Sequence record: ON286975
Origin: Escherichia phage I29
DNA: 64,000 bases
Direction: 5' to 3' (one strand)
Below are positions 1 through 35,392 of the stretch, one piece after another. The notes beneath the pieces are model-generated. The model ran no database searches and was not told the origin of the DNA. It saw only the letters and a list, made by a program, of their open reading frames with translations. Each line of letters begins with the position of its first letter. The stretch's first letter is position 1. Both the position numbers and the translations under genes were made by a program.

Positions 1-373
1 GCTCCCACGATACCAGATCTCCATACGAGGAAATAGGATTACCGTCGATGAGTATGTCCTCTATACCTTCCAGAGGATGATTAGCAAGAACAATGGCACA
101 ATGGAGGGTTCTGTCTCTGTCCTGCTCCAAAAACGCAAGCAGTCCAGACGTGCGTGTCTTCCCATACACTACAGAGCAGGGTGCAGCAGAAGATCTGAGA
201 AGCTTTTGTCTATCTTGCTGACTTCTGTAAGATTTGTTGCCCTCAAAAATCTTATCCAGAGTTCTGGTGGTAACAGTGTTCAGGCTGTCAGCCAGAGCTG
301 CCTTGGATGCGTTCCAGTCATAACTTGAAGATCTTGCAGAAGCAACGATGTTATCAATCATTGCAATTGGCAT
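1..373 (-). CDS. hypothetical protein, 3'-truncated by window edge
   Basis: Own translation of minus strand: ATG at 373..371 overlaps the TAA of the upstream gene; frame stays open for 124 codons (MPIAMIDNIVASARSS...GNPISSYGDLVSWE) to the window edge. Absent from ORF track because there is no stop inside the window. Confidence 0.4.
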   Translation of the reverse strand, partial: MPIAMIDNIVASARSSSYDWNASKAALADSLNTVTTRTLDKIFEGNKSYRSQQDRQKLLRSSAAPCSVVYGKTRTSGLLAFLEQDRDRTLHCAIVLANHPLEGIEDILIDGNPISSYGDLVSWE

Positions 374-798
374 TAATACCTCCAGACATCAACAACGATA
401 GAATCTTTCATGTCGAACATAAAGACCCCTTTATCACCTTTCGCCCAAATCTGGTTGTTCCAGAACACACCAGCGGTGAGCCCGTTCAGACCTTCGAAGA
501 TAACAATATCGCCACGCTGAACCTGTTTAGGAGTATCTAGTCGAGTCATAAAGAGATCAAAAATAGTAGGCAGGTGTGTGGTTTTGAAACGGAGCATGCA
601 CCATCTTTTGCTTTCCAACTCTGTTTTATACGTTCCTTCGAAGTTAGAAAGAAAATCTGTTCCGTATTGGGCATCAACACACTTAGCTGCAAAGGTGCAG
701 CAATCGTGGAATCCCCATTCAAAAGGTATGGTGGCCTCTTCGTCAAACACTCTCCACAATCTTTCTTGCCAATCCACTAAACGAGGGTGTGTGCTCAT
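373..798 (-). CDS. NlpC/P60-like cysteine peptidase domain protein (lambda gpK C-terminal-like), putative tail-associated
   Basis: ORF track 373..810; ATG at 798 overlaps upstream stop (TAATG), whereas the track start at 810 is TTG. Motifs HDCCTFA ... GDIVIFEG ... TAGVFW match the Cys/His pattern of NlpC/P60 peptidases. Confidence 0.45.
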   Translation of the reverse strand: MSTHPRLVDWQERLWRVFDEEATIPFEWGFHDCCTFAAKCVDAQYGTDFLSNFEGTYKTELESKRWCMLRFKTTHLPTIFDLFMTRLDTPKQVQRGDIVIFEGLNGLTAGVFWNNQIWAKGDKGVFMFDMKDSIVVDVWRY

Positions 799-1349
799 TA
801 AACCTCCCAAATGATCGGGCGGCTCGCCACCTGATCCACATATTTAAAAAATCTGTCATTATCGTTTCTTGAGCTGTGGCTTTCCTCCGTGTACCGATAA
901 GGAAAACCTCTTAACCAGCTGTTGAAGATGGAAGAGATGGATATGGACAAAGCACTATTCTCACCTGTCTGAATAGCCATATCTGTTATAAGTCCGTCAA
1001 ACAAGCCATTAGTTGTAACAGGTAGACCATTCTCCATAGCGGTAATGTACAACGTGGCACGACAACCAGAATACTCCGTCTTCAGCAGATCACCCACATA
1101 CTTGGGATCAAACCCGTTTAATGTTGCTACCACAGATCCGAAGTTGGTGGCATCTTTCTCAGACACAGCAGTTAATGTTGCTGATCCACCTATCCCTATA
1201 AAATGTTGCCCCTCAATTACTACAACACCAGTGCCTGAGCACACTCTGACAGTTCCTGTCGGTAGCTCCAGCTTTGCAGCAATTAAGATCTCAACACCAT
1301 CAAGCTCCAGCTTTTCAAGAAATAAATTATCTAATGGCGCTCTGATCAT
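798..1349 (-). CDS. hypothetical tail-region protein
   Basis: ORF track 798..1364; first ATG at 1349 sits 1 nt after upstream TAA (track start is TTG). Co-oriented and tightly packed with tail genes. Confidence 0.45.
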   Translation of the reverse strand: MIRAPLDNLFLEKLELDGVEILIAAKLELPTGTVRVCSGTGVVVIEGQHFIGIGGSATLTAVSEKDATNFGSVVATLNGFDPKYVGDLLKTEYSGCRATLYITAMENGLPVTTNGLFDGLITDMAIQTGENSALSISISSIFNSWLRGFPYRYTEESHSSRNDNDRFFKYVDQVASRPIIWEV

Positions 1350-1350
1350 C

Positions 1351-1941
1351 TTAAAAATCCTCAAAGAAGTTGATAACTATATTATCACCTTTTTGCATAG
1401 CATCGACTTTTTGCTTAATTTTATAAATATCTCTGATATGAAACCTACCCTTCGGAGATTGAGTTATTATCTTCATGGTGTCCCCTGCGGCAATAGGTTT
1501 TCTAAGTCTTGGAGATATGCCTATAACAGCAGACCCAACACCATCACTACGCACTGGAGCTGTTACCACTTTCAACTCATCGTTCACAGATATTTTATCA
1601 CCAGCTCTGGCTATGTCTCTGTTTGGCTCCCACCCGACCGTCTTCAAAAAATCGTCGTTACCAGTAGGCCCAAGGGCGATTGGCTCGTTAGCTGTTACAG
1701 AGTGACCGTAAGTTTTAATAAGAAAGATGTTCCCATCTTTATACACCTGATCAACAAAGCTCTTAAGCTCTAGCAACTGTGACTCGCTGATATTGGAGAC
1801 CGTCAAAGTGCCTTTCCAGTTAGGTGTGGCATAGGTTACTTTTTGCGTTTTACCTGTAAACGGACTTTTAAACGTAACAATATCTGCCAGCAGCTCCAAT
1901 CTAATATCTGGAAGGTATCTAGGCCTTTCCCATAAAAACAT
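1351..1941 (-). CDS. hypothetical tail-region protein
   Basis: 196-aa ORF; ATG at 1941 preceded by GGAGG RBS on the minus strand. Confidence 0.5.
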   Translation of the reverse strand: MFLWERPRYLPDIRLELLADIVTFKSPFTGKTQKVTYATPNWKGTLTVSNISESQLLELKSFVDQVYKDGNIFLIKTYGHSVTANEPIALGPTGNDDFLKTVGWEPNRDIARAGDKISVNDELKVVTAPVRSDGVGSAVIGISPRLRKPIAAGDTMKIITQSPKGRFHIRDIYKIKQKVDAMQKGDNIVINFFEDF

Positions 1942-2040: not shown

Positions 2041-5000
2041 TTACTTCAGTTTCTCTTGCAACCCAGTAACAACCTCTGTCAATTTTTTAACCTGCTCCTC
2101 AAGGGCGGTTATTTTATCGTCCTGTTCCCTGCAAACCTGGACAAGCAAGCCTGTTACAGCTGCATAGTCAACGTTATAGAATCTTTCCTCAGTCATCAGA
2201 GGGGTGCCGTCTTGAGTAGGCCCTGGAACCTCTTTCCTTTGCACGAAAGACCCAACCGCTTCTGGTAATGCTTCCATAACTTCTTGAGCAATTACCCCTG
2301 CGTAAGGCATACCATTCTCTTTTAAAGTATAGGTATAGCCTTTCATCTTCCGGATAGCTTCTACAGCGTTAGGTATGACCTCGATATTATCCTTCAGGTC
2401 ACGGTCAGAACTTTGACTAACAGTGGTGCATTCTACTGCACCATTGACAGCAAAATATCTTGATTTGGCCTCATCTGTCTTGGCCCCGCAATGGAATACC
2501 CAGTTGGAGAGTGTTGAGTTATCACTTATCTGGAACTCAAGCACATTCTTCCGGTCTGCACCATTGCCCCAATAATATAACCTACCTGTATTAGCAGGTA
2601 TGTTGGAACTGTTGCCAACAGTAGCTCCGCCGCCAGTGTGGATTATAAACTCTGGGTCAAGATTCGAACCTTGAGTTTTCAAAGTGATCCCTTTGCCACC
2701 AAGCTGCTGCCAAGGTCCCCATGTGAAAACACTACCTATTGTTGTTCCATAACGCAGGAATTTTTCCCCAAGATATGATACATATTCCTGCACACAGCTC
2801 TCAGGCACGTTGGCGTAATTCCTGTACACAATAAGTGTACCTGCCTGAGCACAAGGGTAGTTTCTCTCCGGAGTGGCCTGAGCATTGGCCTCTTGGTGAT
2901 AAAAACCCTCTCTATCCCCTTTGTAGTCGTTAAGGTCATTAGTTCCCAACCCTTGACCACGGTGCTGAATAACTTTGTTCCACGCTCTGTGGTTTCCCTG
3001 CTCTATGGAACGAGTGTACAGCTGGTCTAAACGACCTGCCATCTGGAAAGCGTAGTTTCCAGAAAAACCAACCGACAACCCTGCTACAACCATGGAACCT
3101 TCAGGTCCGTTGACGTTACCAGCCATTATTTTAGAAGGGTTGTTATTTCCGAACTGGTTGTTCCAGTCTGCACCTGTGTGGCATACAAAACCACCAGGAG
3201 CTGAGAAAGTGCCATCTTTGTTGAAGTTGTAGAATTTGTGAGCAGAACCTACAACATCACGAACAATAACTTGACCAGCCTCTGGAGTAGATCTGAACTC
3301 TGCCTGTCCTTTGAGACCAGCACCATTACCGCATTTAGAGGTAAACGTACCGTTAGTCAGATCCTCTGTCCCATCTGATGCACACTGGAAGCCTGCATTA
3401 GAGAATAACGCCTTTCTAGGACTGCCGTAGCACAAATAGTTAAGACCGTCTGCCCATAGCTCGACTTTTGGCATATTCATTTTGCTCATCACAGCATAGC
3501 GTTCAGCAGTGCCTATATAGTGCCACTGTGTGCCGCCACCAGTGTAGAACCCTGAAGTCCCTTTGAAGTCAACAATAGGTCTGGTGTTGGTATTATTATC
3601 TCCAAGAACAGCAAGATTCAAATCTGCTGACTGGAGAGGTGCAACGAACTTAACACCGTCCTGATTGTCTGTTACAGAGCCAACCTGGTAATCTTGCTCC
3701 CTGGTAAACACCTCGACAACATTTCTACTTGCGTATATGCTGACAGGGAAAGCACGCGCCTCTGCATAGAAAGCAACATATTCTTGTTTACCCCTTGTTG
3801 GAGCAACCATCCCAAGAAGTGCTTTTTCATTCTGGTAGAAATTTACTACCCCGTAGAAAGAGTCTCCTCTGTCTGTCCAACCACCAGTTCTATAGTGACA
3901 CTGTAAGGTCGCACAGTTCATAGGGTCATTTCCAGATGAAGACCTGGTGACTATAGTAATATCTGTACCTGTCGAAGGGGCGTAATACGGATCTGTTCTA
4001 ACGATGATTGGGTAGTATTTCCCATCTTCCATCCCTGCGGTTCTTGGCAGTGTTAAGAAGTCTTTTACACCTGCTGCTATAGGAACTTTGAACAGATTCT
4101 GAGCATCTGCTAAAGTTGTAGCCCCAGTGCCACCTGCGGCTTGAGGTAGAGGTTCCCACTTGGCCTTCCGGTTGTTATAAACACCCCATTCAAGCGTTCC
4201 TTCACCTTGCTCGTCCATACCGCCATCCCAGACAACCATCTTGGCGGCTTTCTTGGACCCCCAGAAGCCTCTTTCTGCCCCTGAACTACGGATCCACTCT
4301 CCAAGTCCCCAGTTTGCCAGCTGACCGTTCAGATCACCAACCTGCATATATTTAGGACAATCTAAGACCCCATCCTCACGGAAGCCTAAATAGCTATGAG
4401 TTTCAGATCCTTTTGCGCCTTTGTGCAGGTGGATTGTCAACCAAGCCTTATTGTCGTTTCTTACCTCAGAGTAGATCCTATACCCATGCTCAAGGACACC
4501 GTCAGCGCCGTATTTATCCCCATGGAGAATACCTGATGGAGACTTAACCTCAGAAGTGCTTTGAGATAGGTAAAGGTGCCCGAAGGTAGGGGTATTTCTA
4601 GACCCGAGACCGATGTGCGATCTAAAGGTATCATCGTTACGAGGTCTGACCATCGGCTGCCATGCAGTCCACTGATTTGTGTTGGCCTGATAGGTTCTCA
4701 AATACCAAACATCTACGTTAGAGAATGGATAGTATTCCTGACGACAACCTGTACCGCCGTTAGCATTGTTCTGCCAGACAATCAAGTGACCAGCACCAGA
4801 ACCTGCAGGGTAACCATTTGCCTCAGTTGCATAAGCAGTCATCGGCTGGTAGTATACACCATCCTGATTACCAGTCAAGTTATTGATATTGAAATTTGGC
4901 TCAAGGGCTGCACGTTGCTTATAGAAAGCACCGATATTGATACGGACTCCAGCGGCATCTCTAGCCCCTGTGCCGCCTTGCTCTATAGCAAGAGGTTGCC

Positions 5001-5841
5001 ACGAAGCTGTTTGTTGGTTCCACATACCCCAACGGCCTGTTGCATCAAGCTGCAAGTACCCTGCCGTATTTAAATCATCTCCAGCACGGATAACTGTTCT
5101 TGTTGGGTTGTTTGCCTCTAGGCGTTTAAATTCATCACGAAGTGCTATTCTTTTCGTTGTTGCTACACCGTTGGTTACTGCAATGGTGTACATGGCTCCG
5201 GTGGTAGCGCCACGGAAAATACCATCAACAGTTGTAGTATCACGACGAGATACCACACCGTTCAGAAATTTTTCACCAGCTGCTACAGAAGGGTAGTTGG
5301 TAGTTCTTCCCTCTTCAATAACTGCAGGGCCAACAAAGTTATCAAGGTGAATAACATCGCCTACAGTGTGCACTGTACCAAAATCTACACGCTGTGCAAG
5401 TGCTTTGGCATCGTTAGCTGTCTGAACAGTAACATCCATTACATCCTGGACAGACTGCCCTTCGGCTGTCATGATCATAGATGCGCCAATGGTAGATTCC
5501 AGCTCCTCCCTTAAGGACGGGTCAGTATATACCATCCATGCAGCATCAGTGATCCCACCATCGGAGTACGGTGAAGACAGTGCAGGAACAGTGTGCGGAA
5601 ATTCGCCTTTCCAACGTAGGTAGAGGTCTTCCTCTTCGAAGTAGGCAAAATCCATTGGGCCGTTTAACTTACCACCTTCCTTAAAGGAGATTACATGAGA
5701 AACAGTCCCATCAACATGGACAACATCGCCAATTTTTACACGACGGGTCAGGTCTGGTTGTTGAACAACCAGGTAATCATCCTCTGTCACTGCGGTAGTG
5801 GCAGGAAGAGATTCAATTCTGACAACTTTAATATCAGCCAT
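2041..5841 (-). CDS. long tail fiber / receptor-binding protein with C-terminal intramolecular chaperone domain
   Basis: 1266 aa; AGGAG RBS before ATG at 5841. N-terminal ~100 aa paralogous to the 8477..9145 product. C-terminal ~120 aa contains SDRDLKDNIEVIP...KMKGYTY, matching the conserved Ser-Asp-x-x-Leu-Lys autoproteolytic chaperone motif of tail fibers and tailspikes. Confidence 0.8.
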   Translation of the reverse strand: MADIKVVRIESLPATTAVTEDDYLVVQQPDLTRRVKIGDVVHVDGTVSHVISFKEGGKLNGPMDFAYFEEEDLYLRWKGEFPHTVPALSSPYSDGGITDAAWMVYTDPSLREELESTIGASMIMTAEGQSVQDVMDVTVQTANDAKALAQRVDFGTVHTVGDVIHLDNFVGPAVIEEGRTTNYPSVAAGEKFLNGVVSRRDTTTVDGIFRGATTGAMYTIAVTNGVATTKRIALRDEFKRLEANNPTRTVIRAGDDLNTAGYLQLDATGRWGMWNQQTASWQPLAIEQGGTGARDAAGVRINIGAFYKQRAALEPNFNINNLTGNQDGVYYQPMTAYATEANGYPAGSGAGHLIVWQNNANGGTGCRQEYYPFSNVDVWYLRTYQANTNQWTAWQPMVRPRNDDTFRSHIGLGSRNTPTFGHLYLSQSTSEVKSPSGILHGDKYGADGVLEHGYRIYSEVRNDNKAWLTIHLHKGAKGSETHSYLGFREDGVLDCPKYMQVGDLNGQLANWGLGEWIRSSGAERGFWGSKKAAKMVVWDGGMDEQGEGTLEWGVYNNRKAKWEPLPQAAGGTGATTLADAQNLFKVPIAAGVKDFLTLPRTAGMEDGKYYPIIVRTDPYYAPSTGTDITIVTRSSSGNDPMNCATLQCHYRTGGWTDRGDSFYGVVNFYQNEKALLGMVAPTRGKQEYVAFYAEARAFPVSIYASRNVVEVFTREQDYQVGSVTDNQDGVKFVAPLQSADLNLAVLGDNNTNTRPIVDFKGTSGFYTGGGTQWHYIGTAERYAVMSKMNMPKVELWADGLNYLCYGSPRKALFSNAGFQCASDGTEDLTNGTFTSKCGNGAGLKGQAEFRSTPEAGQVIVRDVVGSAHKFYNFNKDGTFSAPGGFVCHTGADWNNQFGNNNPSKIMAGNVNGPEGSMVVAGLSVGFSGNYAFQMAGRLDQLYTRSIEQGNHRAWNKVIQHRGQGLGTNDLNDYKGDREGFYHQEANAQATPERNYPCAQAGTLIVYRNYANVPESCVQEYVSYLGEKFLRYGTTIGSVFTWGPWQQLGGKGITLKTQGSNLDPEFIIHTGGGATVGNSSNIPANTGRLYYWGNGADRKNVLEFQISDNSTLSNWVFHCGAKTDEAKSRYFAVNGAVECTTVSQSSDRDLKDNIEVIPNAVEAIRKMKGYTYTLKENGMPYAGVIAQEVMEALPEAVGSFVQRKEVPGPTQDGTPLMTEERFYNVDYAAVTGLLVQVCREQDDKITALEEQVKKLTEVVTGLQEKLK

Positions 5842-5877
5842 TCTTTCTCCTGAAAGGGGGCAAACAGCCCCCCTATG

Positions 5878-8475
5878 TTAAAGGTACAATCCACGGTATT
5901 GAGCATAAAGGCCCAGACCGCGAAGGATTTCGCCAGAGTGATAGCCAACCGGATCAGAAACTGCCCAGCAGCCGTTTAAAATATTATCCCCATTAATGAA
6001 GTGGTGCTTTTGCAGTAGCTTCACACAGGCTTCCACAACAATATCTATTTGAGGTATTGTCTCTGAATACCCGCACAGACCTAGCCAGCAGCAACCTGCA
6101 AGCCATTCACCTACCACCCACATCCTGTCTCCTCTGTCCTGATAAGAATATCCCCCAGAGGTGTTAAAGTCTGTAGGCAGATTTCCTGAATGAGATGACT
6201 GGAATCTGTTGAGGAACCATGCCCATTTCTGGCAGAACAGGAATAGTCTTTCATCAACAGGTTCTTTATGTTTCTTGAGCTCATATATTGTGCGGCACGC
6301 AGCAACAAAAGATCTTGACTGGAGCTTAGAGTTATCTACCATCTCCCACCAACCAGTCAACCCTTCATTACCTCTTTGCCATACATAACGTGAGGCAACT
6401 GGACCCTCTGTCTTAAATGTATTATTATACCAGACTTGAGCGTCATACAGAAAGCCTATTGTATTTGACAATCTATGGCGATCTATGTTTTCTGCACCCA
6501 TGCAGTAGACTGCTGGGTATTGCATGCCAGGGTAGGGCCAATTTGGCCTTTCCTCTAAGAGATAGTTTTCCTTATCTATCACCTTTCCGGCAGGGAACAC
6601 ACCTGGTGTGTGCCTGTATGCACCTTGCTTGTAGTTTCTGACATAGCAATCACCAACCTTGGCGGTTGATTCTGTCTTGCTTGCCATCCATACGCTAAAC
6701 CAGATTAGATAAGCATCCCTATCTGCAATATAGAATTGCGGCAGTGTGTTGACGCAATATAGATCAAACAAGCCATTACCTATCTGCCTGTCGCTTAGGC
6801 TGAAATCTACAGAGGTGAGTCCCTTAGGATTAGCAAAGAAAGGTTTAATCTCTTCTTCAGTGTGATGAGGTTGTGTCGGATCTAGTTTGAAATCTCCTAG
6901 AGTAAGAGTTTCTGTTATCCATTGTCCATTAGTGGCATATAGATCAGCATACCATAACCACCTGTCTTTGTCAAGAAATTTGACCCTTACCATCTCATCA
7001 TCTGATCGATAAGTTACTGAGTTTAAAGAAATCTCTCTTCCAAAGTTGAAAGTTACTTTGCCTCTTGCTATATTACAACGGGTGAAGTTGTCAGAGTGGT
7101 TGTAAATGTCAGTATCGTACTGCATACTAACACTGGCACCACCGCTCACGGCAATGTTTTCCTCTTTAGGTAAGAGGTACGGATTACCGTCTTTACCAAC
7201 TACCTCTACGAAATCAGTAACCTTGGCAACTATTTCTGTTACCTCTGCCCCTCCAAAAGGAACCCCTATCCTGTACTGTTTTTTGTTATTGTTGCCATCA
7301 TTAAGGATGAAATGTGGCTGGAACAGAACCCCTTCTCCTCCGAAATTCATAACAATTTCAGCATCTCTGCCTATTTTGTATGTAGTCCCTTTTTGAATTA
7401 TTTCGCAAGGCTGGCGTGCGTTCATTCTAAAATTGATATACCCGTCACTGTCTCTGCTCATGACAGGAACTGTTCCTGCAACAAGACAAGTACCGTCTGT
7501 AAACGGTGCCTTAATCAACGTGGTCTTTCTAAACAACTTGTCGTAGGCGTTTATATCACTGAAATTAAGCAACTTGTTGTAAGACTGTTTAAACGCGGTG
7601 TAATACTTTTCCTCACCTGTCAAGGTGTAGAGTTGATAACAAGCGTCACACCACATTTCTTCCCCGTCCAACTCTGGGGCCTGATTATCTGCAACCACGT
7701 TTATAGGATTTACAATTACAGGGGATCCAGCAGGTATCACCGATCCACCCTGCTCTTGAGGTAATCTTACACAATAGGTCACCTTGTGGCTTCCTGTAAC
7801 ACCCTTATCTTGTAATTGGATTGTGCCGAACTCTATAGACGTATGCCCACTGTCGGCTATGCTCCCGTTAGCCCAATAGCGGTTACCATCCCATGCTATG
7901 TACCACTCAACCCACCAACTTAATCCTGATGTTGTCCAATCTGGGTTAGCATCTGTGCCACCGTAAACATCAGAGTCTACAGTGTTTCTTCCTAACACAC
8001 CGTTATACGCTTGGAATGCCTTGTCCAGGTATTCCCCCCATGTCGGAGATCCAGCTGGGATTTTTCCTCTACCGTTGGTAAAAGACACTACCACATCTTT
8101 AAACCCACCGTGTGATGGAACCCCATCTGTGGATAGAGGGTAGTGGGACAATCTTTGCATTTTACTTTCTACGGCATATGCACCCAGAAGATGACTATTG
8201 TAAGCTTCCCAAGCATCTTTTGCCCTATCCAGATAGAAATCGCTTTTCGATGCCCTGTATGCTTCAATGTATCCCAGAATCAACACAGCTTGGGACTCAT
8301 GCATTGCCCAATCGTTATTTATCTTATTACCTGCCCACCCTGCAGCTATAAGACCATCAGGGTTTACTAGCTTATTTTGTGTAGGTGTGTTGGTAATACC
8401 TGTGTTGTTATCGAGGCACTTCCTGTGCCCCTCAATCATCTGAAATACGTTATCAATGTTGTGTTGAATACGCAT
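5878..8475 (-). CDS. putative tailspike-like protein, possible glycan-degrading enzyme
   Basis: 865-aa ORF between two fiber genes; its ATG lies 1 nt after the TAA of the upstream 222-aa anchor-domain protein. No anchor domain of its own. Enzymatic assignment is inference only. Confidence 0.45.
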   Translation of the reverse strand: MRIQHNIDNVFQMIEGHRKCLDNNTGITNTPTQNKLVNPDGLIAAGWAGNKINNDWAMHESQAVLILGYIEAYRASKSDFYLDRAKDAWEAYNSHLLGAYAVESKMQRLSHYPLSTDGVPSHGGFKDVVVSFTNGRGKIPAGSPTWGEYLDKAFQAYNGVLGRNTVDSDVYGGTDANPDWTTSGLSWWVEWYIAWDGNRYWANGSIADSGHTSIEFGTIQLQDKGVTGSHKVTYCVRLPQEQGGSVIPAGSPVIVNPINVVADNQAPELDGEEMWCDACYQLYTLTGEEKYYTAFKQSYNKLLNFSDINAYDKLFRKTTLIKAPFTDGTCLVAGTVPVMSRDSDGYINFRMNARQPCEIIQKGTTYKIGRDAEIVMNFGGEGVLFQPHFILNDGNNNKKQYRIGVPFGGAEVTEIVAKVTDFVEVVGKDGNPYLLPKEENIAVSGGASVSMQYDTDIYNHSDNFTRCNIARGKVTFNFGREISLNSVTYRSDDEMVRVKFLDKDRWLWYADLYATNGQWITETLTLGDFKLDPTQPHHTEEEIKPFFANPKGLTSVDFSLSDRQIGNGLFDLYCVNTLPQFYIADRDAYLIWFSVWMASKTESTAKVGDCYVRNYKQGAYRHTPGVFPAGKVIDKENYLLEERPNWPYPGMQYPAVYCMGAENIDRHRLSNTIGFLYDAQVWYNNTFKTEGPVASRYVWQRGNEGLTGWWEMVDNSKLQSRSFVAACRTIYELKKHKEPVDERLFLFCQKWAWFLNRFQSSHSGNLPTDFNTSGGYSYQDRGDRMWVVGEWLAGCCWLGLCGYSETIPQIDIVVEACVKLLQKHHFINGDNILNGCWAVSDPVGYHSGEILRGLGLYAQYRGLYL

Positions 8476-8476
8476 C

Positions 8477-9145
8477 TTAGATAGCTCCTGCGATAATCAA
8501 TGCCCCGTACCAAGTTAACCCGTTGTCGTAGGTTTCCAACTTGAAAATGTCTGTTGCACCAGCTGTAAATGTTAGGATAGGATCTCTTCCGTAGGACCAT
8601 TTAACATTACCAGGCCAATAGACTTTGTTGCCGCCAGAGGTCTGAGTAATGCATACGGTTATAGTTCTCGCCACCCCTTCAAGACCTTCTGTTTGATTTT
8701 CAAAAGAGATTGTGGTATTTGAAGTTAGTCGAACCTTAAAGGTATCCGCAACTTCAAGATCCATATCAAGCTGACCACCGATAGATCCGTAATCAACTAT
8801 TCTGCCAGAAGAAGTTGCAGCAAGCTCACCAAAAACAGACCAGGCGTTTGCAGACACACCCCCAGCACCCTCTACAGTGGAGTCTGGGAGGATTATTTTA
8901 GGATAATCCCCGTTCCACGTGTAGTAGCGCTTAGTTTCTGGATCATAAGCAAAGTCCTTCTTGCTCTTAAGATAACCACCCTCTGTGAAATAGACTATCT
9001 TAGTAATGCTAAGATCGTTGACAACATCGTCAATCTTAGCCTTTCTTGTCCCATCAGTCTGGTTGACAACCAAGAAGTCATCACTCAGGACTGTTTCTGC
9101 ATCTTCAAGATCTGGAATTGGTATTGTAGGATAAGCTACAGCCAT
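8477..9145 (-). CDS. short tail fiber / adaptor protein with conserved N-terminal anchor domain
   Basis: 222 aa; N-terminus (DDFLVVNQTDGTRKAKIDDVV ... FTEGGYLKSKKDFAY ... WNGDYP) aligns with the N-terminus of the 1266-aa fiber. Confidence 0.55.
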   Translation of the reverse strand: MAVAYPTIPIPDLEDAETVLSDDFLVVNQTDGTRKAKIDDVVNDLSITKIVYFTEGGYLKSKKDFAYDPETKRYYTWNGDYPKIILPDSTVEGAGGVSANAWSVFGELAATSSGRIVDYGSIGGQLDMDLEVADTFKVRLTSNTTISFENQTEGLEGVARTITVCITQTSGGNKVYWPGNVKWSYGRDPILTFTAGATDIFKLETYDNGLTWYGALIIAGAI

Positions 9146-9154
9146 GATTTCTCC

Positions 9155-9871
9155 TTAGTTAACATCAATAGCACGACCAGACTGGTTGGCAATAGCCTCA
9201 TCATTGGAGGTAGCAATAACACCAGAGTATTCGCGCTCATCTGGAGCAAGAGTCCAGGTATTGCGGTTAATGGTTTGTTCTGCCTCGGTCATCAGCAGAT
9301 CTTTATCCTGAGTCAACAGAGAGCCTACAGGGATAGGGTTTTCCATCTCAGGACCAGCATACTGGTTCCACCATGTGGCATCTCCGGTTCTAGGCAATCT
9401 GAAGTTGATCAGGTAGTACAGTTTATTGGCCCACTTAATCCAACCTTCATCATCACAGAGAGAGGTTGTCCCAGAATCAGGCTGTGGGTAGGTAAACTGA
9501 TCAAGACCTACGAAAGCCAGCCTTACAATCTCGTTCTCTTTGGTAACAACCTCAAAGAACGCTTGGTATGTTCTCGATCTTCGATCCATGGTAGACTGGA
9601 AGTTTACGATGTTTAGCACATCCGGCTCTTGTCTTGCCACTTCCATAATCTTGTTATCAAGAACAGTCTTCATGACCTTCTTACTGAGAAAGTCCATATA
9701 AGGGAAGCCAAACAACTCGTCAAAGTACCAGCTCCCCTTCCACGTATTAAACCTCATCCACAAGCGCTGGCGCAGACTTACCTGGTTTGAATCTATCAAC
9801 TCAAGACCTTTGTCTATCGCCAAATCGCCTGTCTGTGGGTCCATCAATATATCACTATAAAGCGTAGCCAT
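9155..9871 (-). CDS. hypothetical baseplate/tail protein
   Basis: 238-aa ORF between spike-like gene and fiber genes; position only. Confidence 0.4.
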   Translation of the reverse strand: MATLYSDILMDPQTGDLAIDKGLELIDSNQVSLRQRLWMRFNTWKGSWYFDELFGFPYMDFLSKKVMKTVLDNKIMEVARQEPDVLNIVNFQSTMDRRSRTYQAFFEVVTKENEIVRLAFVGLDQFTYPQPDSGTTSLCDDEGWIKWANKLYYLINFRLPRTGDATWWNQYAGPEMENPIPVGSLLTQDKDLLMTEAEQTINRNTWTLAPDEREYSGVIATSNDEAIANQSGRAIDVN

Positions 9872-31868: not shown

Positions 31869-32219
31869 CTAACCAGTTGTTGACATCCGAATAACTTCTT
31901 CTGGTGGCAAAACTTTGGAAAATGTGCATCTTTTACCTCTCCCTTGTGTGGATGTTTCAACCACTCCTGCACATTCTAAAGTTTTAACGCACGCTGCTGC
32001 TTTTGTTTTCTTTATCCCAACATCTGCTGCAATTTTCCTTGTGCTTGGTGTGAAGCGTGAATTTCCTCCAAGCTTATACCAGTTGTGCAGGTAGCAGTAT
32101 ACGATCTTGTCATACAAGTCAAGAACAACAACCTCCCCAGTTGTGTCATTCAAAACTTTTGACATAGATAGTATTTCAAGGGGGACTTTAAGATATAGCA
32201 GCTTATCCCCATCTTTCAT
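31869..32219 (-). CDS. hypothetical protein, possible helix-turn-helix DNA-binding protein
   Basis: 116-aa ORF; segment STRKIAADVGIKKTKAAACVKTL has helix-turn-helix character (inference); 3' end abuts the iteron array. Confidence 0.35.
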   Translation of the reverse strand: MKDGDKLLYLKVPLEILSMSKVLNDTTGEVVVLDLYDKIVYCYLHNWYKLGGNSRFTPSTRKIAADVGIKKTKAAACVKTLECAGVVETSTQGRGKRCTFSKVLPPEEVIRMSTTG

Positions 32220-32266
32220 ATCTCCTGATTCTCCTTGTGTGGCAATTTTCTTTAAAATAGCAGGGA

Positions 32267-32821
32267 TTACTCCCTGCTGTCAATATCAAAACTCATTGCA
32301 ATACGGTATGCCTCTTCTAATGGTAAGAGTCTCCCCCACACATCCCAACCGACATCAAGCTGCCTGCCAAACAACTGTTGTGTGGTTCCGTGAGCATGAC
32401 CGAACAGTTGGACTGATCCGTGAGGCTTTCTGTTCCACTTTGCAAACTGGTAATGGCTCATACAGATCAAATTCTTGTTGTGGCGAAGCTCGTAATAATC
32501 TACAACCTCATGACCGAACTCTTTCATAATTCTGACAGTCGTCCTTGTGTCATGGTTGCCACGAACAAGAATAATATGTCCGTTCAACATATTTAGAATA
32601 TCTGGAAGTAAGTTGTTGATATTCTTATCATTAGTGCACGCAATATCTCCCAAGTGGAACACAGTGTCTGCAGGTGACACAACAGAGTTCCACTTGGCGA
32701 TGATTCCCGCATTCATACTGTCAAGATTGTGATCATACTGAGATCTGTGTTTTTGACATGAATCAAACTCCATGACCCGCTGGTGGAGAAAGTGTGTGTC
32801 GCTTGTTACAAAGTATTTCAT
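32267..32821 (-). CDS. calcineurin-like metallophosphoesterase (candidate RNA 2',3'-end phosphatase)
   Basis: ORF track 32267..32926; ATG at 32821 (MKYFVTSDTHF...) has a GAGGAA RBS. Motifs SDTHF, GDI, GNHD, GHAHG match binuclear metallophosphoesterases. Confidence 0.7.
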   Translation of the reverse strand: MKYFVTSDTHFLHQRVMEFDSCQKHRSQYDHNLDSMNAGIIAKWNSVVSPADTVFHLGDIACTNDKNINNLLPDILNMLNGHIILVRGNHDTRTTVRIMKEFGHEVVDYYELRHNKNLICMSHYQFAKWNRKPHGSVQLFGHAHGTTQQLFGRQLDVGWDVWGRLLPLEEAYRIAMSFDIDSRE

Positions 32822-32828
32822 ACATTCC

Positions 32829-33239
32829 TCATTTAAGTTTAATGCAGTTTTTAAGCTGGCGTTCCATACGATCCACAACCTTGTCTGGAACATCATGAAT
32901 GCTTTTATTACCGTGGCGGTTTTCAACCACGATCACGGTATAACTATACCCATGACTGATTGCCATGTCAACATATTCCTGCACATGTTTTTCTTTTGTA
33001 AACGTATTACTTACCACGATACGGTCGTATCCCATACGCATCATATCTTCTACGTTATCTTTGCACCATTTTGCTGCGAGTGTTACTTTACTTGCATCCC
33101 AGTTGTAATTGCCGTCATCGTCATACCAGAACATGTCGTTCTCAAAATGTGGATACAGACCCTCTAAAGATAGCGCATTTGCCAGTGTTGATTTGCCAGA
33201 CCCTGGTAGACCACGCACGATATATAGCATTTTAGACAT
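32829..33239 (-). CDS. P-loop kinase, polynucleotide kinase-like
   Basis: ORF track 32829..33296; ATG at 33239 (MSKMLYIVRGLPGSGKST...) has a GGAGGG RBS; Walker A GLPGSGKST at the N-terminus as in polynucleotide 5'-kinase domains; adjacent to phosphoesterase and RNA ligase-like genes. Confidence 0.55.
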   Translation of the reverse strand: MSKMLYIVRGLPGSGKSTLANALSLEGLYPHFENDMFWYDDDGNYNWDASKVTLAAKWCKDNVEDMMRMGYDRIVVSNTFTKEKHVQEYVDMAISHGYSYTVIVVENRHGNKSIHDVPDKVVDRMERQLKNCIKLK

Positions 33240-33339
33240 AGTGACCCTCCGTTTTAATTTCAACGGTAGTATACCTGACTGTTTTGTTAATTTCAAGTGT
33301 TGACACTAGGTTATTTGTGTGGCAGGATAGACTGACAAA

Positions 33340-34275
33340 ATGACAAATGAGGAACGTATGATGAAGTATTTTAATGCAGACGACCTAGTTGACAAAGGTC
33401 TTGTAACCAGTAGGTATTACCCAGATCTCGGGTTAAAGATCTATAAATATGCTAGAAAAGTATTTTACAACAATTTATGGCATTTGTCCCCTCGTTTACT
33501 GGAGTGCCGAGGCATTGTTGTAGGTAATGAAGGAAATGTTGTGGCATGGCCCTTCACAAAAGTGTTTAACTTGGGAGAAAACTCCACCAACCTGCCTGAC
33601 AATAAGCTTGTGACTGCGGTAGAGAAAAAGAACGGATTCCTTGGTGTGGTATCATCTCATAAAGGTGACCTATTGTTCTCAACAACCGGGTCTCTTGATT
33701 CTCCATATTGTAACCTTGCAAAGGAAACCATCCAAGAGCAATGTGGTAATTTAGATCTTATCAAGAAGGTTATGGGCAATGAAAACATGACATTCATGTT
33801 TGAAATTTGTCACCCTTCAGATCCGCATATTGTTCAAGAAGACCATGGCGCATATTTGATAGGTTGCAGATATAATGATTCTGGAATAATGCTACCAGAA
33901 GCAGCTTTAGATGGGATTGCCAAATACCTTGGTGCAAAACGTCCTCACACTGTGCGTGAAATCCCGTTCAGCTATGCAAAAGAATTAGCTGCAGAAACAA
34001 GGGGCGAAGGGTATATGATCCGTAAGCCTTACTACCCTTATGACCTGCAGCTGAAGATCAAGTCTCCATACTATTTGGCACGGAAGGCCGTAATGAGGGG
34101 TAAAGCTTGGAAGATTTGGGATGATGATATCTTTAAACGTATTGACGAAGAGTTTTATGGCATGGTAAACTTCATTCGTAGCAATTACACAGAAGATGTG
34201 TGGAACTGCCTCCTGGAGCAGGAACGCCGTGAGATACTTGATTGCTATTTTCACAACGAGGACTATATGCAATGA
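33340..34275 (+). CDS. RNA ligase-like nucleotidyltransferase
   Basis: 311 aa; covalent nucleotidyltransferase motif I-like VEKKNGFLG (KxNG); distinct from the DNA ligase at 36746; divergent from the kinase/phosphatase pair. Confidence 0.5.
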   Translation: MTNEERMMKYFNADDLVDKGLVTSRYYPDLGLKIYKYARKVFYNNLWHLSPRLLECRGIVVGNEGNVVAWPFTKVFNLGENSTNLPDNKLVTAVEKKNGFLGVVSSHKGDLLFSTTGSLDSPYCNLAKETIQEQCGNLDLIKKVMGNENMTFMFEICHPSDPHIVQEDHGAYLIGCRYNDSGIMLPEAALDGIAKYLGAKRPHTVREIPFSYAKELAAETRGEGYMIRKPYYPYDLQLKIKSPYYLARKAVMRGKAWKIWDDDIFKRIDEEFYGMVNFIRSNYTEDVWNCLLEQERREILDCYFHNEDYMQ

Positions 34276-34622
34276 AGAAGTTGATTGTGTGGCTAGATGA
34301 CTTGAGAGATCCGTCAAATTACGGAATCCAAGATGCTCTTTGGCTGAAGAACTCTTCTGAGTTCATGGATTTTATTAACGATAATAGAAAGCTCTACAGG
34401 CGCGTTTCTGAGTGGCATTTTGACAATGATCTAGGTGAAGTGCTTGAAGGGTACGACTGCTTCTCTGCGCTAGAGGAGAAACTTGTATTCGGAAAGCCAC
34501 CACTTATTGACAACGTGATTATTTTCGTGCATACTTCTAATCCATCGGCAGCTCGTAAATTTATGCTTGCTGCTGACTCATTCAAGAAGTTTGGAATAGA
34601 GATTAAACAAAACATCTACTGA
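34272..34622 (+). CDS. hypothetical protein, receiver (CheY-fold)-like residue pattern
   Basis: ORF track 34242..34622; ATG at 34272 overlaps the RNA ligase stop (ATGA). Pattern LIVWLDD ... HFDNDLG ... IFVHTSNP ... AARKF recalls the acidic/Thr/Lys positions of receiver domains (inference). Confidence 0.4.
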   Translation: MKKLIVWLDDLRDPSNYGIQDALWLKNSSEFMDFINDNRKLYRRVSEWHFDNDLGEVLEGYDCFSALEEKLVFGKPPLIDNVIIFVHTSNPSAARKFMLAADSFKKFGIEIKQNIY

Positions 34623-34630
34623 GGACACTT

Positions 34631-35392
34631 ATGCGACGACTGATTATTATCTCCGGTGCTGGTTTGAGCGCTGAATCTGGTATTCCCACTTTCCGATCTG
34701 GTAGCACTGCAATGTGGGAGAATTTCAGCATCGATGAGGTGTGCAACATCCACACCTTTGCCAAGAACTACTATAAGGTGCATGACTTTTACAATGCACG
34801 TCGTGTAGCTCTGGGCAGTGTTGATCCTAACCTTGCACATCTTCGGATCGCTGAGTGGTATTCCCGCTGGTCTGGTCGTGTGATCAACCTTACTACCAAT
34901 GTAGATGATTTGCTGGAGCGTGCTGGTGTAAAACATGAAGATATTTTACATGTCCACGGGTATTTGCCTGAAATCACCTACGAAGATGCTGAAGGTAATG
35001 ATGTAATTAAAAATATCGGATACACGGAGGTAGATACAGGCAAGTATACCTGGGTTAAGCCCAATGTAGTGTTCTTCGGTGAGGTTGCTCCTAAGTATAC
35101 AGACATGTATGACCTGTTGACATCTCTCACAAGCAATGATATGGTGATCCTGGTAGGTTGTTCTAACACAGTTATTAATTTTAACTGGGAATTGTTTCCT
35201 GCTACTTGTAAAGGCACAAAACTGCTGATTGTAAACAAGTATGATTCGCAGAGTGCAGATGGAAGTGGCATTTCACGTAGCGACCTTTATCAATATGAGG
35301 ATCGCGGGATCCCTGTATGGTTTAACGGTGCTGTTGACGCTTTCTCTGATAAAGCATTTATTGAAACTGTAGAAAACTTTATGGAACTTTAA
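34631..35392 (+). CDS. Sir2-family NAD-dependent deacylase/ADP-ribosyltransferase-like protein (zinc-ribbon-less)
   Basis: 253 aa; N-terminal GAGLSAESGIPTFRSG matches the Sir2 NAD-binding signature, with later HVHG; the canonical tetracysteine zinc module is not evident. Confidence 0.75.
   Translation: MRRLIIISGAGLSAESGIPTFRSGSTAMWENFSIDEVCNIHTFAKNYYKVHDFYNARRVALGSVDPNLAHLRIAEWYSRWSGRVINLTTNVDDLLERAGVKHEDILHVHGYLPEITYEDAEGNDVIKNIGYTEVDTGKYTWVKPNVVFFGEVAPKYTDMYDLLTSLTSNDMVILVGCSNTVINFNWELFPATCKGTKLLIVNKYDSQSADGSGISRSDLYQYEDRGIPVWFNGAVDAFSDKAFIETVENFMEL

Follow-up and report, generated by a model that had tools for sequence, protein, structure and literature searches.

A small virion protein that likely serves as adaptor for a glycosidase-like partner in rV5-like bacteriophages

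Introduction

For rV5-like and phi92-like phages, the assignment of genes to fibers is recognized as an unsettled matter, which the BASEL paper describes as "far from clear." The question takes a particular form at one locus of Escherichia phage I29, of which a window of 64,000 nucleotides was analyzed here (sequence record ON286975; positions are those of the window). Between positions 2041 and 9145, three genes encode proteins of 222, 865, and 1266 amino acids (aa), and the large product of the middle gene does not possess the N-terminal domain shared by its two neighbors. How, then, is this protein held on the virion? A prediction made from the letters of the sequence had proposed that the 222-aa protein may act as an adaptor docking the 865-aa protein onto the particle, giving a branched receptor-binding complex. 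The pairing of the two genes across very different phages strongly supports the adaptor role, as do natural fusions of the large protein with the baseplate protein gpI, the docking itself being deduced from sequence, and we consider it likely that the 222-aa protein carries the 865-aa protein on the virion.

Three Genes of an rV5-Like Tail Locus

Nucleotide searches with the region 2041-9145 identify it as part of an rV5-like Vequintavirus. Identity is 91-97% over the full 7.1 kb among the full-length matches listed, and at least 80% of the query is covered in 115 of the 123 matching phage records. All three open reading frames (ORFs) are on the minus strand and are orthologues of rV5 gp43, gp42, and gp41, respectively:

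8477..9145, minus strand: gene of the 222-aa putative adaptor (rV5 gp43 orthologue); ORF with a full-length match to phrog_7760 'tail fiber protein'
5878..8475, minus strand: gene of the 865-aa virion protein, predicted to be (alpha/alpha)6-barrel and glycosidase-like (rV5 gp42 / phi92 gp141 family; phrog_2871)
2041..5841, minus strand: gene of the 1266-aa lateral tail fiber (rV5 gp41 orthologue); ORF, phrog_6578, variable among rV5-like phages

In rV5, gp41, gp42, and gp43 were all detected by mass spectrometry of virions (PMC3606486), including gp42, on whose presence in the particle the original prediction hinges. According to the same paper, gp43 of rV5 has 222 aa and gp41 has 1272 aa (compared with 1266 aa here); gp42 is named without a size (PMC3606486).

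The genes of the 222-aa and 865-aa proteins are in different reading frames and almost touch. Read on the minus strand, their junction is ...GCAGGAGCTATC TAA G ATG..., where the stop codon (8477-8479) and the initiation codon (8473-8475) are separated by the single base 8476, exactly as had been predicted. The ribosome-binding site of the second gene lies inside the first:

8485..8489, minus strand: Shine-Dalgarno sequence AGGAG of the 865-aa gene, within the last adaptor codons, 9 nt upstream of the ATG

A Common Anchor in the Small Protein and the Fiber

The original prediction held that the N-terminal ~100 residues of the 222-aa and 1266-aa proteins are homologous, that they suggest a common virion-attachment domain, and that this domain is absent from the 865-aa protein. 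All three statements are supported. Pairwise BLASTP between the two proteins is significant (38% identity, 55% positives, E = 3e-18), aligning residues 8-105 with residues 7-105 over 99 aa with one gap. Over residues 1-110, the two sequences reach a Smith-Waterman score of 175, to be compared with 27.7 +/- 4.9 (maximum 61) for shuffled sequences (z ~30), and each half taken separately is also significant, with z = 11 for residues 1-45 and z = 18 for residues 46-110. The 865-aa protein has no significant similarity to either neighbor (best E 1.5 and 0.30), and among all proteins of the tail-fiber locus of the closely related phage Bas58, this N-terminus is found in the 222-aa and 1266-aa proteins only. 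In both, Pfam detects Tail_spike_N, a recognized region of attachment to virions or to complexes:

9011..9145, minus strand: adaptor residues 1-45, anchor motif with a paralogous counterpart at the start of the 1266-aa fiber (z = 11)
8831..9010, minus strand: adaptor Tail_spike_N (PF18668), residues ~46-105 (E = 2.1e-10, 41 bits for a cut-off of 25)
5533..5841, minus strand: anchor (residues 1-45) and Tail_spike_N (residues 46-103) of the 1266-aa fiber (Tail_spike_N 40.9 bits for a cut-off of 25)

In a sequence search of the PDB, the hits of the Tail_spike_N segments are N-terminal heads of tailspikes of known structure, among them CBA120 TSP1, TSP3, and TSP4. A hidden Markov model (HMM) of the two ~45-aa anchors retrieves phi92 gp140 and the endosialidase gp143, 4MG gp049 and the colanidase gp047, as well as the small protein of phAPEC8; the alignment shows that phi92 gp140 has kept the 45-aa motif without the Tail_spike_N segment. 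Hence, a small protein and a nearby spike or fiber with a common anchor are found in three diverged lineages, namely the rV5-like phages, Seunavirus 4MG / PVP-SE1, and phi92. Because both partners have kept the anchor in all three, a common attachment role is indicated. In the monomer AlphaFold2 (AF2) model of the 222-aa protein, this N-terminus has a predicted local distance difference test score (pLDDT) below 50.

Phage fiber genes are mosaic, and the 1266-aa fiber exchanges distal parts with other phages, as would be expected if the N-terminal similarity were a remnant of duplication or recombination devoid of any shared attachment role. However, such a remnant would hardly be retained by adaptor and neighboring spike or fiber in rV5-like phages, in Seunavirus 4MG / PVP-SE1, and in phi92 alike; the domain corresponds to a known tailspike head, and both halves of the region are conserved. 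We regard this explanation as very improbable.

A Two-Gene Cassette in Very Different Phages

The distribution of the two genes was examined by tblastn in a database of 50,697 phage records. The 222-aa protein matches 535 records; beyond the rV5/Seunavirus/PVP-SE1 group, only its last ~105 residues match, in small proteins called 'tail fiber'. The 865-aa protein matches 524 records, with almost the same counts per genus and with adjoining match coordinates:

Escherichia: 243 hits with the 222-aa protein, 242 with the 865-aa protein
Salmonella: 99 and 101
Vibrio: 58 and 62
Campylobacter: 23 and 23
Cronobacter: 12 and 12
Aeromonas: 7 and 7

The ~23 'Campylobacter phage' records matching the cassette genes (MG0656xx; A116, A147, A141, A12a, A110a) give Campylobacter jejuni as host. 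The rV5-like ones among them are 99-100% identical to E. coli rV5-like genes, and A110a carries a phi92-like version (35% identity); judging by these identities, the records look like mislabelled or contaminating coliphages.

The small protein is directly followed by the large one in Vequintavirus, and in all the other annotated examples a protein of 157-269 aa directly precedes one of 916-1157 aa. Such pairs are present in Seunavirus 4MG, phi92 (gp140/gp141), phAPEC8, Rosemountvirus SE13, and Kolesnikvirus (Erwinia), and also in Grimontviridae A24, in the T7-like Aghbyviruses ISAO8 and Kaonashi (Autographiviridae), in a 240-kb Seoulvirus jumbo phage, and in a 157-kb Vibrio phage. When the proteins are aligned, the C-terminal domain (C-domain) alone is common to all the small ones, with invariant W, P, G, and D positions, and the large ones are conserved from about residue 10 to their end. 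The genus Septuagintavirus (Vequintavirinae) appears devoid of the cassette, as judged from a published virion protein table.

A scan of IMG/VR with the alignment of the large proteins gave 80 loci, all ORFs of which were compared with two HMMs, one for the C-domain and one for the large protein. Five loci, cut off upstream, were left out. In 63 of the 75 informative loci, an ORF with the C-domain at its end terminates -19 to +14 nt from the start of the enzyme-like gene. In the 12 others, the C-domain is absent and the large protein has an in-frame N-terminal extension; none of the 75 shows neither arrangement. Eleven of the 12 extensions correspond to gpI, a baseplate protein of P2 (Pfam Tail_P2_I, E = 2e-53), and the genes of these loci are arranged canonically for P2: V, W, J, I::enzyme, H, G, sheath. 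The twelfth, in a jumbo phage, is an extension of 278 aa without assigned family. In one jumbo-phage fusion (P0080), a weak C-domain-like match just before the enzyme scores 10.5 bits with the HMM, the maximum in 1000 shuffles being 7.9. The other fused variants give no significant match to the C-domain HMM, and a profile-profile comparison of the C-domain with the jumbo-phage extensions (hhalign) has a probability of 9%; no weight is placed on these matches.

Among the N-terminal parts of the small proteins from the IMG/VR loci, at least 17 classes with no relationship to one another can be distinguished. Those that can be recognized are Phage_T7_tail of T7 gp17 (PF03906), Phage_tail_fib of the P2 gpH type (PF12571), Tail_spike_N, and, weakly, a lambda-type phage_tail_N. 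The PF03906 N-terminus is that of the Aghbyvirus small proteins (ISAO8, Kaonashi, phiR8-01), and Pfam does not detect it in the 222-aa protein of I29. Thus, a constant C-domain, an exchangeable N-terminus, and a covalent fusion to the baseplate where the C-domain is missing make up the pattern expected of an adaptor.

The same loci inform on a second possibility, in which the 865-aa protein attaches to the baseplate alone, via an unrecognized surface, and the pairing reflects shared regulation or function. The N-terminal helix of the enzyme is conserved and could be an attachment element, and cryo-electron microscopy (cryo-EM) studies of rV5-like phages and of phi92 give no location for the enzyme. 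However, the enzyme is associated with podophage, myophage, jumbo-phage, and P2-like tails whose baseplates are unrelated, and it is the N-terminus of the small protein that varies with the type of particle. Moreover, where the small protein is missing, the enzyme forms a single polypeptide with a baseplate protein. Self-attachment therefore seems to us quite improbable.

Two observations on the distribution can be added. The gpI fusions are carried by IMG/VR contigs of ~7-20 kb (L042, L047, L049, L050, L053, L054, L057-L060, L089), where an ordinary gpH fiber gene still adjoins, and these clusters may be prophages or tailocins; a homologue of the enzyme is also found in Burkholderia vietnamiensis (P0010). 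In Rosemountvirus and Loughboroughvirus, the pair sits between the head-tail connector and the sheath/tube genes, outside the baseplate cluster (L006, SE13, 3336-6916), and the adaptor N-terminus forms a coiled-coil class of its own; judging from this gene position, the neck or collar may be where the enzyme is attached in these phages.

The C-Terminal Knob

What the small proteins have in common is their C-terminus:

8480..8806, minus strand: conserved C-terminal beta-sandwich of the adaptor, residues ~114-222 (last ~105 aa), proposed socket for the 865-aa protein

In the 222-aa protein, only residues 114-222 are modeled by AF2 with confidence (pLDDT ~86), and they form a beta-sandwich. Its structural neighbors are N-terminal fragments of CBA120 TSP4, a T4 gp9-like baseplate protein, and a long-tail-fiber proximal subunit, together with the Pa223 capsid spike, an Acinetobacter phage tailspike, and domains of StcE and CpaA. 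The paper on the TSP4 N-terminal fragment gives T4 gp9, gp10, CpaA, and StcE as neighbors of its XD1 domain. Since the two sets match, the knob can be described as XD1-like. An assignment to the gp10-like docking jellyrolls XD2/XD3 (~60 aa) was considered and rejected, the structural neighbors pointing to an XD1-like sandwich. The BASEL/GenBank label 'sialidase domain protein' (bas58_0025) was likewise set aside: Pfam detects no sialidase domain, and Foldseek matches to sialidases have E > 1 and a probability of at most 0.08, over ~60 columns.

In the alignment, the invariant residues of the knob span phages of Escherichia, Vibrio, Erwinia, Serratia, and Yersinia. This bears on another view of the pair, in which the 222-aa protein would be a short receptor-binding fiber whose knob contacts the host, the 865-aa protein being an assembly factor or an accessory that is not carried. 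The C-domain does lie at the distal tip, the usual place of receptor-binding domains, databases name the small proteins 'tail fiber protein', and the structural neighbors include the glycan-binding StcE and CpaA and a capsid spike with a terminal knob, that of Pa223. Receptor-binding tips, however, are not expected to be invariant across phages of five host genera. In the loci examined, the knob never occurs without the enzyme, and its absence coincides exactly with the fusion of enzyme and gpI. In addition, the enzyme (865-1150 aa) is present in virions and far larger than known fiber chaperones, and in the Aghbyvirus podoviruses it has no other visible route to the tail. All in all, a receptor-binding function in place of the adaptor function is unlikely.

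A Predicted Enzyme as Proposed Cargo

The model of the 865-aa protein has a mean pLDDT of 70; each of its ends consists of helical hairpins, and beta-sandwich domains occupy the central part. It displays the predicted fold of an (alpha/alpha)6 barrel, split by large beta-sandwich insertions. This fold is that of the GH8, GH88, GH105, GH76, and AGE family enzymes, from which the model would differ by the splitting of the barrel. Identity to any solved enzyme is 9-13%. Some D, E, R, Y, and W positions are invariant in the family, the acidic ones including D270, E272, D342, and D609, but they could not be matched to a known catalytic pair. In the literature, its members are labelled 'glycosidase' or 'hydrolase predicted', and phi92 gp141 is listed as a putative glycosidase (PMC5380687). 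Taking the model into account, the 865-aa protein is most likely a globular glycosidase-like enzyme and not a fiber.

The family is small: an exhaustive search among representative sequences gave only 92 clusters (50% identity, 1.8 billion proteins); N-terminally extended variants are seen, and there is no annotation. Word-indexed protein searches with single proteins or alignments returned few matches (4, 6, and 46 proteins), which explains the shallow alignment, of 7 sequences, used for the model.

Within the family, the Vequintavirus enzyme is a trimmed, divergent subfamily, 56% identical to the nearest outgroup and ~35% to the rest. It has retained the invariant residues, and two segments that are well conserved in all other lineages are missing (columns ~45-75 and ~120-140; 'NNRHF...QPNGD' and 'QPIPDxPxRYxCNWIINGKEP'). 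Conversely, large insertions or C-terminal extensions occur in P0062 (1250 aa), P0072 (1795 aa), and L068/L088/L090 (~1610-1630 aa). The insert of P0062 contains what look by eye like RCC1-type repeats, and other members have C-terminal extensions measuring 700-900 aa. These sequences suggest that the enzyme can itself be a platform for further modules.

A Conserved Pair Beside a Variable Fiber

The original prediction had united the three genes in one receptor-binding module. This holds for the pair of 222-aa and 865-aa proteins, which is a conserved, co-inherited unit; the 1266-aa fiber is a separate and variable partner. Indeed, the two proteins of the pair are at least 99% identical in ~96 rV5-like records, the 222-aa protein being 98-100% identical among rV5-like phages, whereas the 1266-aa fiber is found at 99% identity or more in 2 phage records only. 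Because the pair is near-invariant while the fiber varies, the former can be considered as the conserved unit. The distal two-thirds of the fiber are exchanged with T5-like and other fibers, and its C-terminal part carries a chaperone:

2254..2409, minus strand: Peptidase_S74 intramolecular chaperone (PF13884), fiber residues 1145-1196 (E = 6.6e-14, 52.4 bits for a cut-off of 22)

The 1266-aa fiber is thus a variable host-range element mounted on the same kind of anchor, and the pair probably addresses a conserved host structure.

Genomic Context and a Model for Assembly

The gene order of the locus is that of Bas58 (HeinrichReichert), in which tape measure, tube initiator, hub, central spike, and a 238-aa 'baseplate protein' precede the fiber genes. 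There, the 222-aa protein is called 'sialidase domain protein', the 865-aa protein 'lateral tail fiber protein with glycosidase domains', and the 1266-aa protein 'lateral tail fiber protein'; further baseplate and fiber genes come after the last of these. In I29, the gene directly upstream of the adaptor gene is:

9155..9871, minus strand: 238-aa baseplate protein, directly upstream of the adaptor gene; phrog_4233 and phrog_120 'baseplate wedge subunit'

It is the positional counterpart of phi92 gp139, described as the sheath initiator (PMC13450770).

We propose the following model. gp43 would be a short adaptor, probably trimeric, whose N-terminal ~105 aa (the 45-aa anchor and the Tail_spike_N head) would fix it at the periphery of the baseplate, beside the gp41 fiber, which would use the same kind of anchor. 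The beta-sandwich knob at its C-terminus would then hold gp42, devoid of an anchor of its own, in a non-covalent manner, and any stoichiometry given to the two partners would be conjectural. Translational coupling of the two genes would allow the partners to be made together and would favor their co-assembly. Finally, the enzyme would be presented next to the variable fiber and would probably bind or cleave a conserved envelope glycan during adsorption. Parts of this model deserve less confidence than the adaptor role as such. This is the case for the wedge as possible attachment site, suggested by analogy with phi92, and for a putative catalysis on glycan, suggested by the predicted fold. As to the branched architecture that had been envisaged, it is uncertain, the 1266-aa fiber and the adaptor more likely standing side by side on equivalent sites than being stacked.

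Several points weigh against the carrying of the 865-aa protein by the 222-aa protein, or against an enzymatic nature of the cargo. The complex of the two proteins is deduced from gene pairing and fusions, and adjacency and co-inheritance could mean a joint function without contact. The correlation of C-domain and enzyme distances in a mirror-tree comparison is modest (rho = 0.41, and 0.09 among distant pairs); it is barely above that of the N-terminal parts and was treated as uninformative. Because the fold of the C-domain recurs in glycan-binding modules (StcE, CpaA), and with a spike such as that of Pa223 ending in a knob, the C-domain could itself bind a receptor. Finally, the model of the 865-aa protein is of moderate confidence only (pLDDT 70, 7-sequence alignment), and no CAZy or Pfam family and no PDB sequence match this protein.

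Some features outside the three genes may be mentioned here. Directly downstream of the 1266-aa fiber gene (373-1941, minus strand), three genes encode a protein of 196 aa that matches phrog_1302, a 'distal tail protein' family, a tail protein of 188 aa (phrog_2048), and a DUF6950 protein of 145 aa. In Bas58, where the corresponding stretch is L001:10734-15901, they are followed by a fourth gene for a 1199-aa protein with the lambda gpJ-type domains Phage_Tail_Tip, Ig_J, and Ig_J_second. The four downstream genes resemble a siphovirus-style tail-tip module within a myovirus baseplate cluster, where phi92 has one gene of 88 aa. The 228-aa 'putative tail terminator' of Bas58 (bas58_0033) occupies the position of the gpI-like wedge protein gp146 of phi92. 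At the scale of the window, the GC skew (strand asymmetry of G and C) turns from negative to positive near 33-34 kb (~32000-35000), where minus-strand structural genes give way to plus-strand genes.

Relationships With Known Branched Systems

That one virion-bound protein carries enzymes without anchors is a principle already known from the branched tailspikes of CBA120 (TSP1-4) and G7C (gp66/gp63.1). The branching adaptors of these systems, CBA120 TSP2 and TSP4 and G7C gp66, are of the T4 gp10-like XD2/XD3 type, and TSP4 and gp66 bind their partners by XD2/XD3 jellyrolls. In contrast, the carrier described here has no enzymatic body and its putative socket is a C-terminal XD1-like domain. The cargo differs as well: instead of a trimeric beta-helix tailspike, it is predicted to be a globular, split (alpha/alpha)6 enzyme without a Tail_spike_N head.

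In SP6, K1-5, and K1E podoviruses, an adaptor of the gp37 type, with a T7 gp17-like N-terminus, holds enzymatic spikes that have no tail-binding domain of their own. Latka and co-workers are said to have described, in 2019, anchor-branch systems of receptor-binding proteins in Klebsiella phages. The Aghbyvirus members of the present family share the PF03906 N-terminus with these systems. However, the docking domain and the cargo belong to other families, and the joint is combined here with at least 17 N-terminal classes and with several morphotypes.

The closest parallel is the 'Swiss-army-knife' apparatus of phi92, where the order gp139, gp140, gp141 is orthologous and is followed by gp143, which shares the N-terminal motif of gp140. 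The differences are that gp140 has no Tail_spike_N and that an extra gene, gp142, lies between enzyme and spike. In the 2026 cryo-EM paper on phi92, gp140 is an uncharacterized fiber-like protein and gp141 is never mentioned; a 'short, thick, rigid' fiber II, joined to the base of fiber I, is described there without an assigned gene. gp140/gp141 is a candidate for this fiber II.

No description of the pairing of small protein and enzyme was found in the searchable literature, nor is it described in papers on S144, phi80-18, Septuagintavirus, and RBPseg. What is new with respect to the known systems would be the XD1-like socket on a carrier without catalytic body, the split-barrel cargo, and the portable nature of the joint, including the gpI fusions. 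A broader reading can be put forward tentatively, its chances being a little short of even. The knob and the (alpha/alpha)6 enzyme would constitute a universal, portable plug-and-socket joint, moved as a two-gene cassette between unrelated virion architectures by a change of anchor or by fusion of the enzyme to a baseplate protein. Its range would extend from podoviruses and several families of myoviruses to jumbo phages and P2-like tails. Fiber II of phi92 and of rV5-like phages would then consist of this pair, its enzyme being non-fibrous and directed at a glycan that is conserved in Gram-negative hosts.

Significance for rV5-Like and phi92-Like Phages

Phages of the rV5-like and phi92-like groups are common; their host range is broad, and they are therapeutic candidates. 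For these phages, a concrete assignment can now be offered, in which an adaptor, gp43 or gp140, would carry an enzyme, gp42 or gp141, and would be anchored like the neighboring fiber. The analysis also defines a small conserved domain, putatively for docking, that is combined in nature with many virion anchors. If the proposal is true, the joint would provide a ready-made means of attaching an enzyme to phages or tailocins built by engineering, and it would point to a conserved glycan of the envelope as a target.

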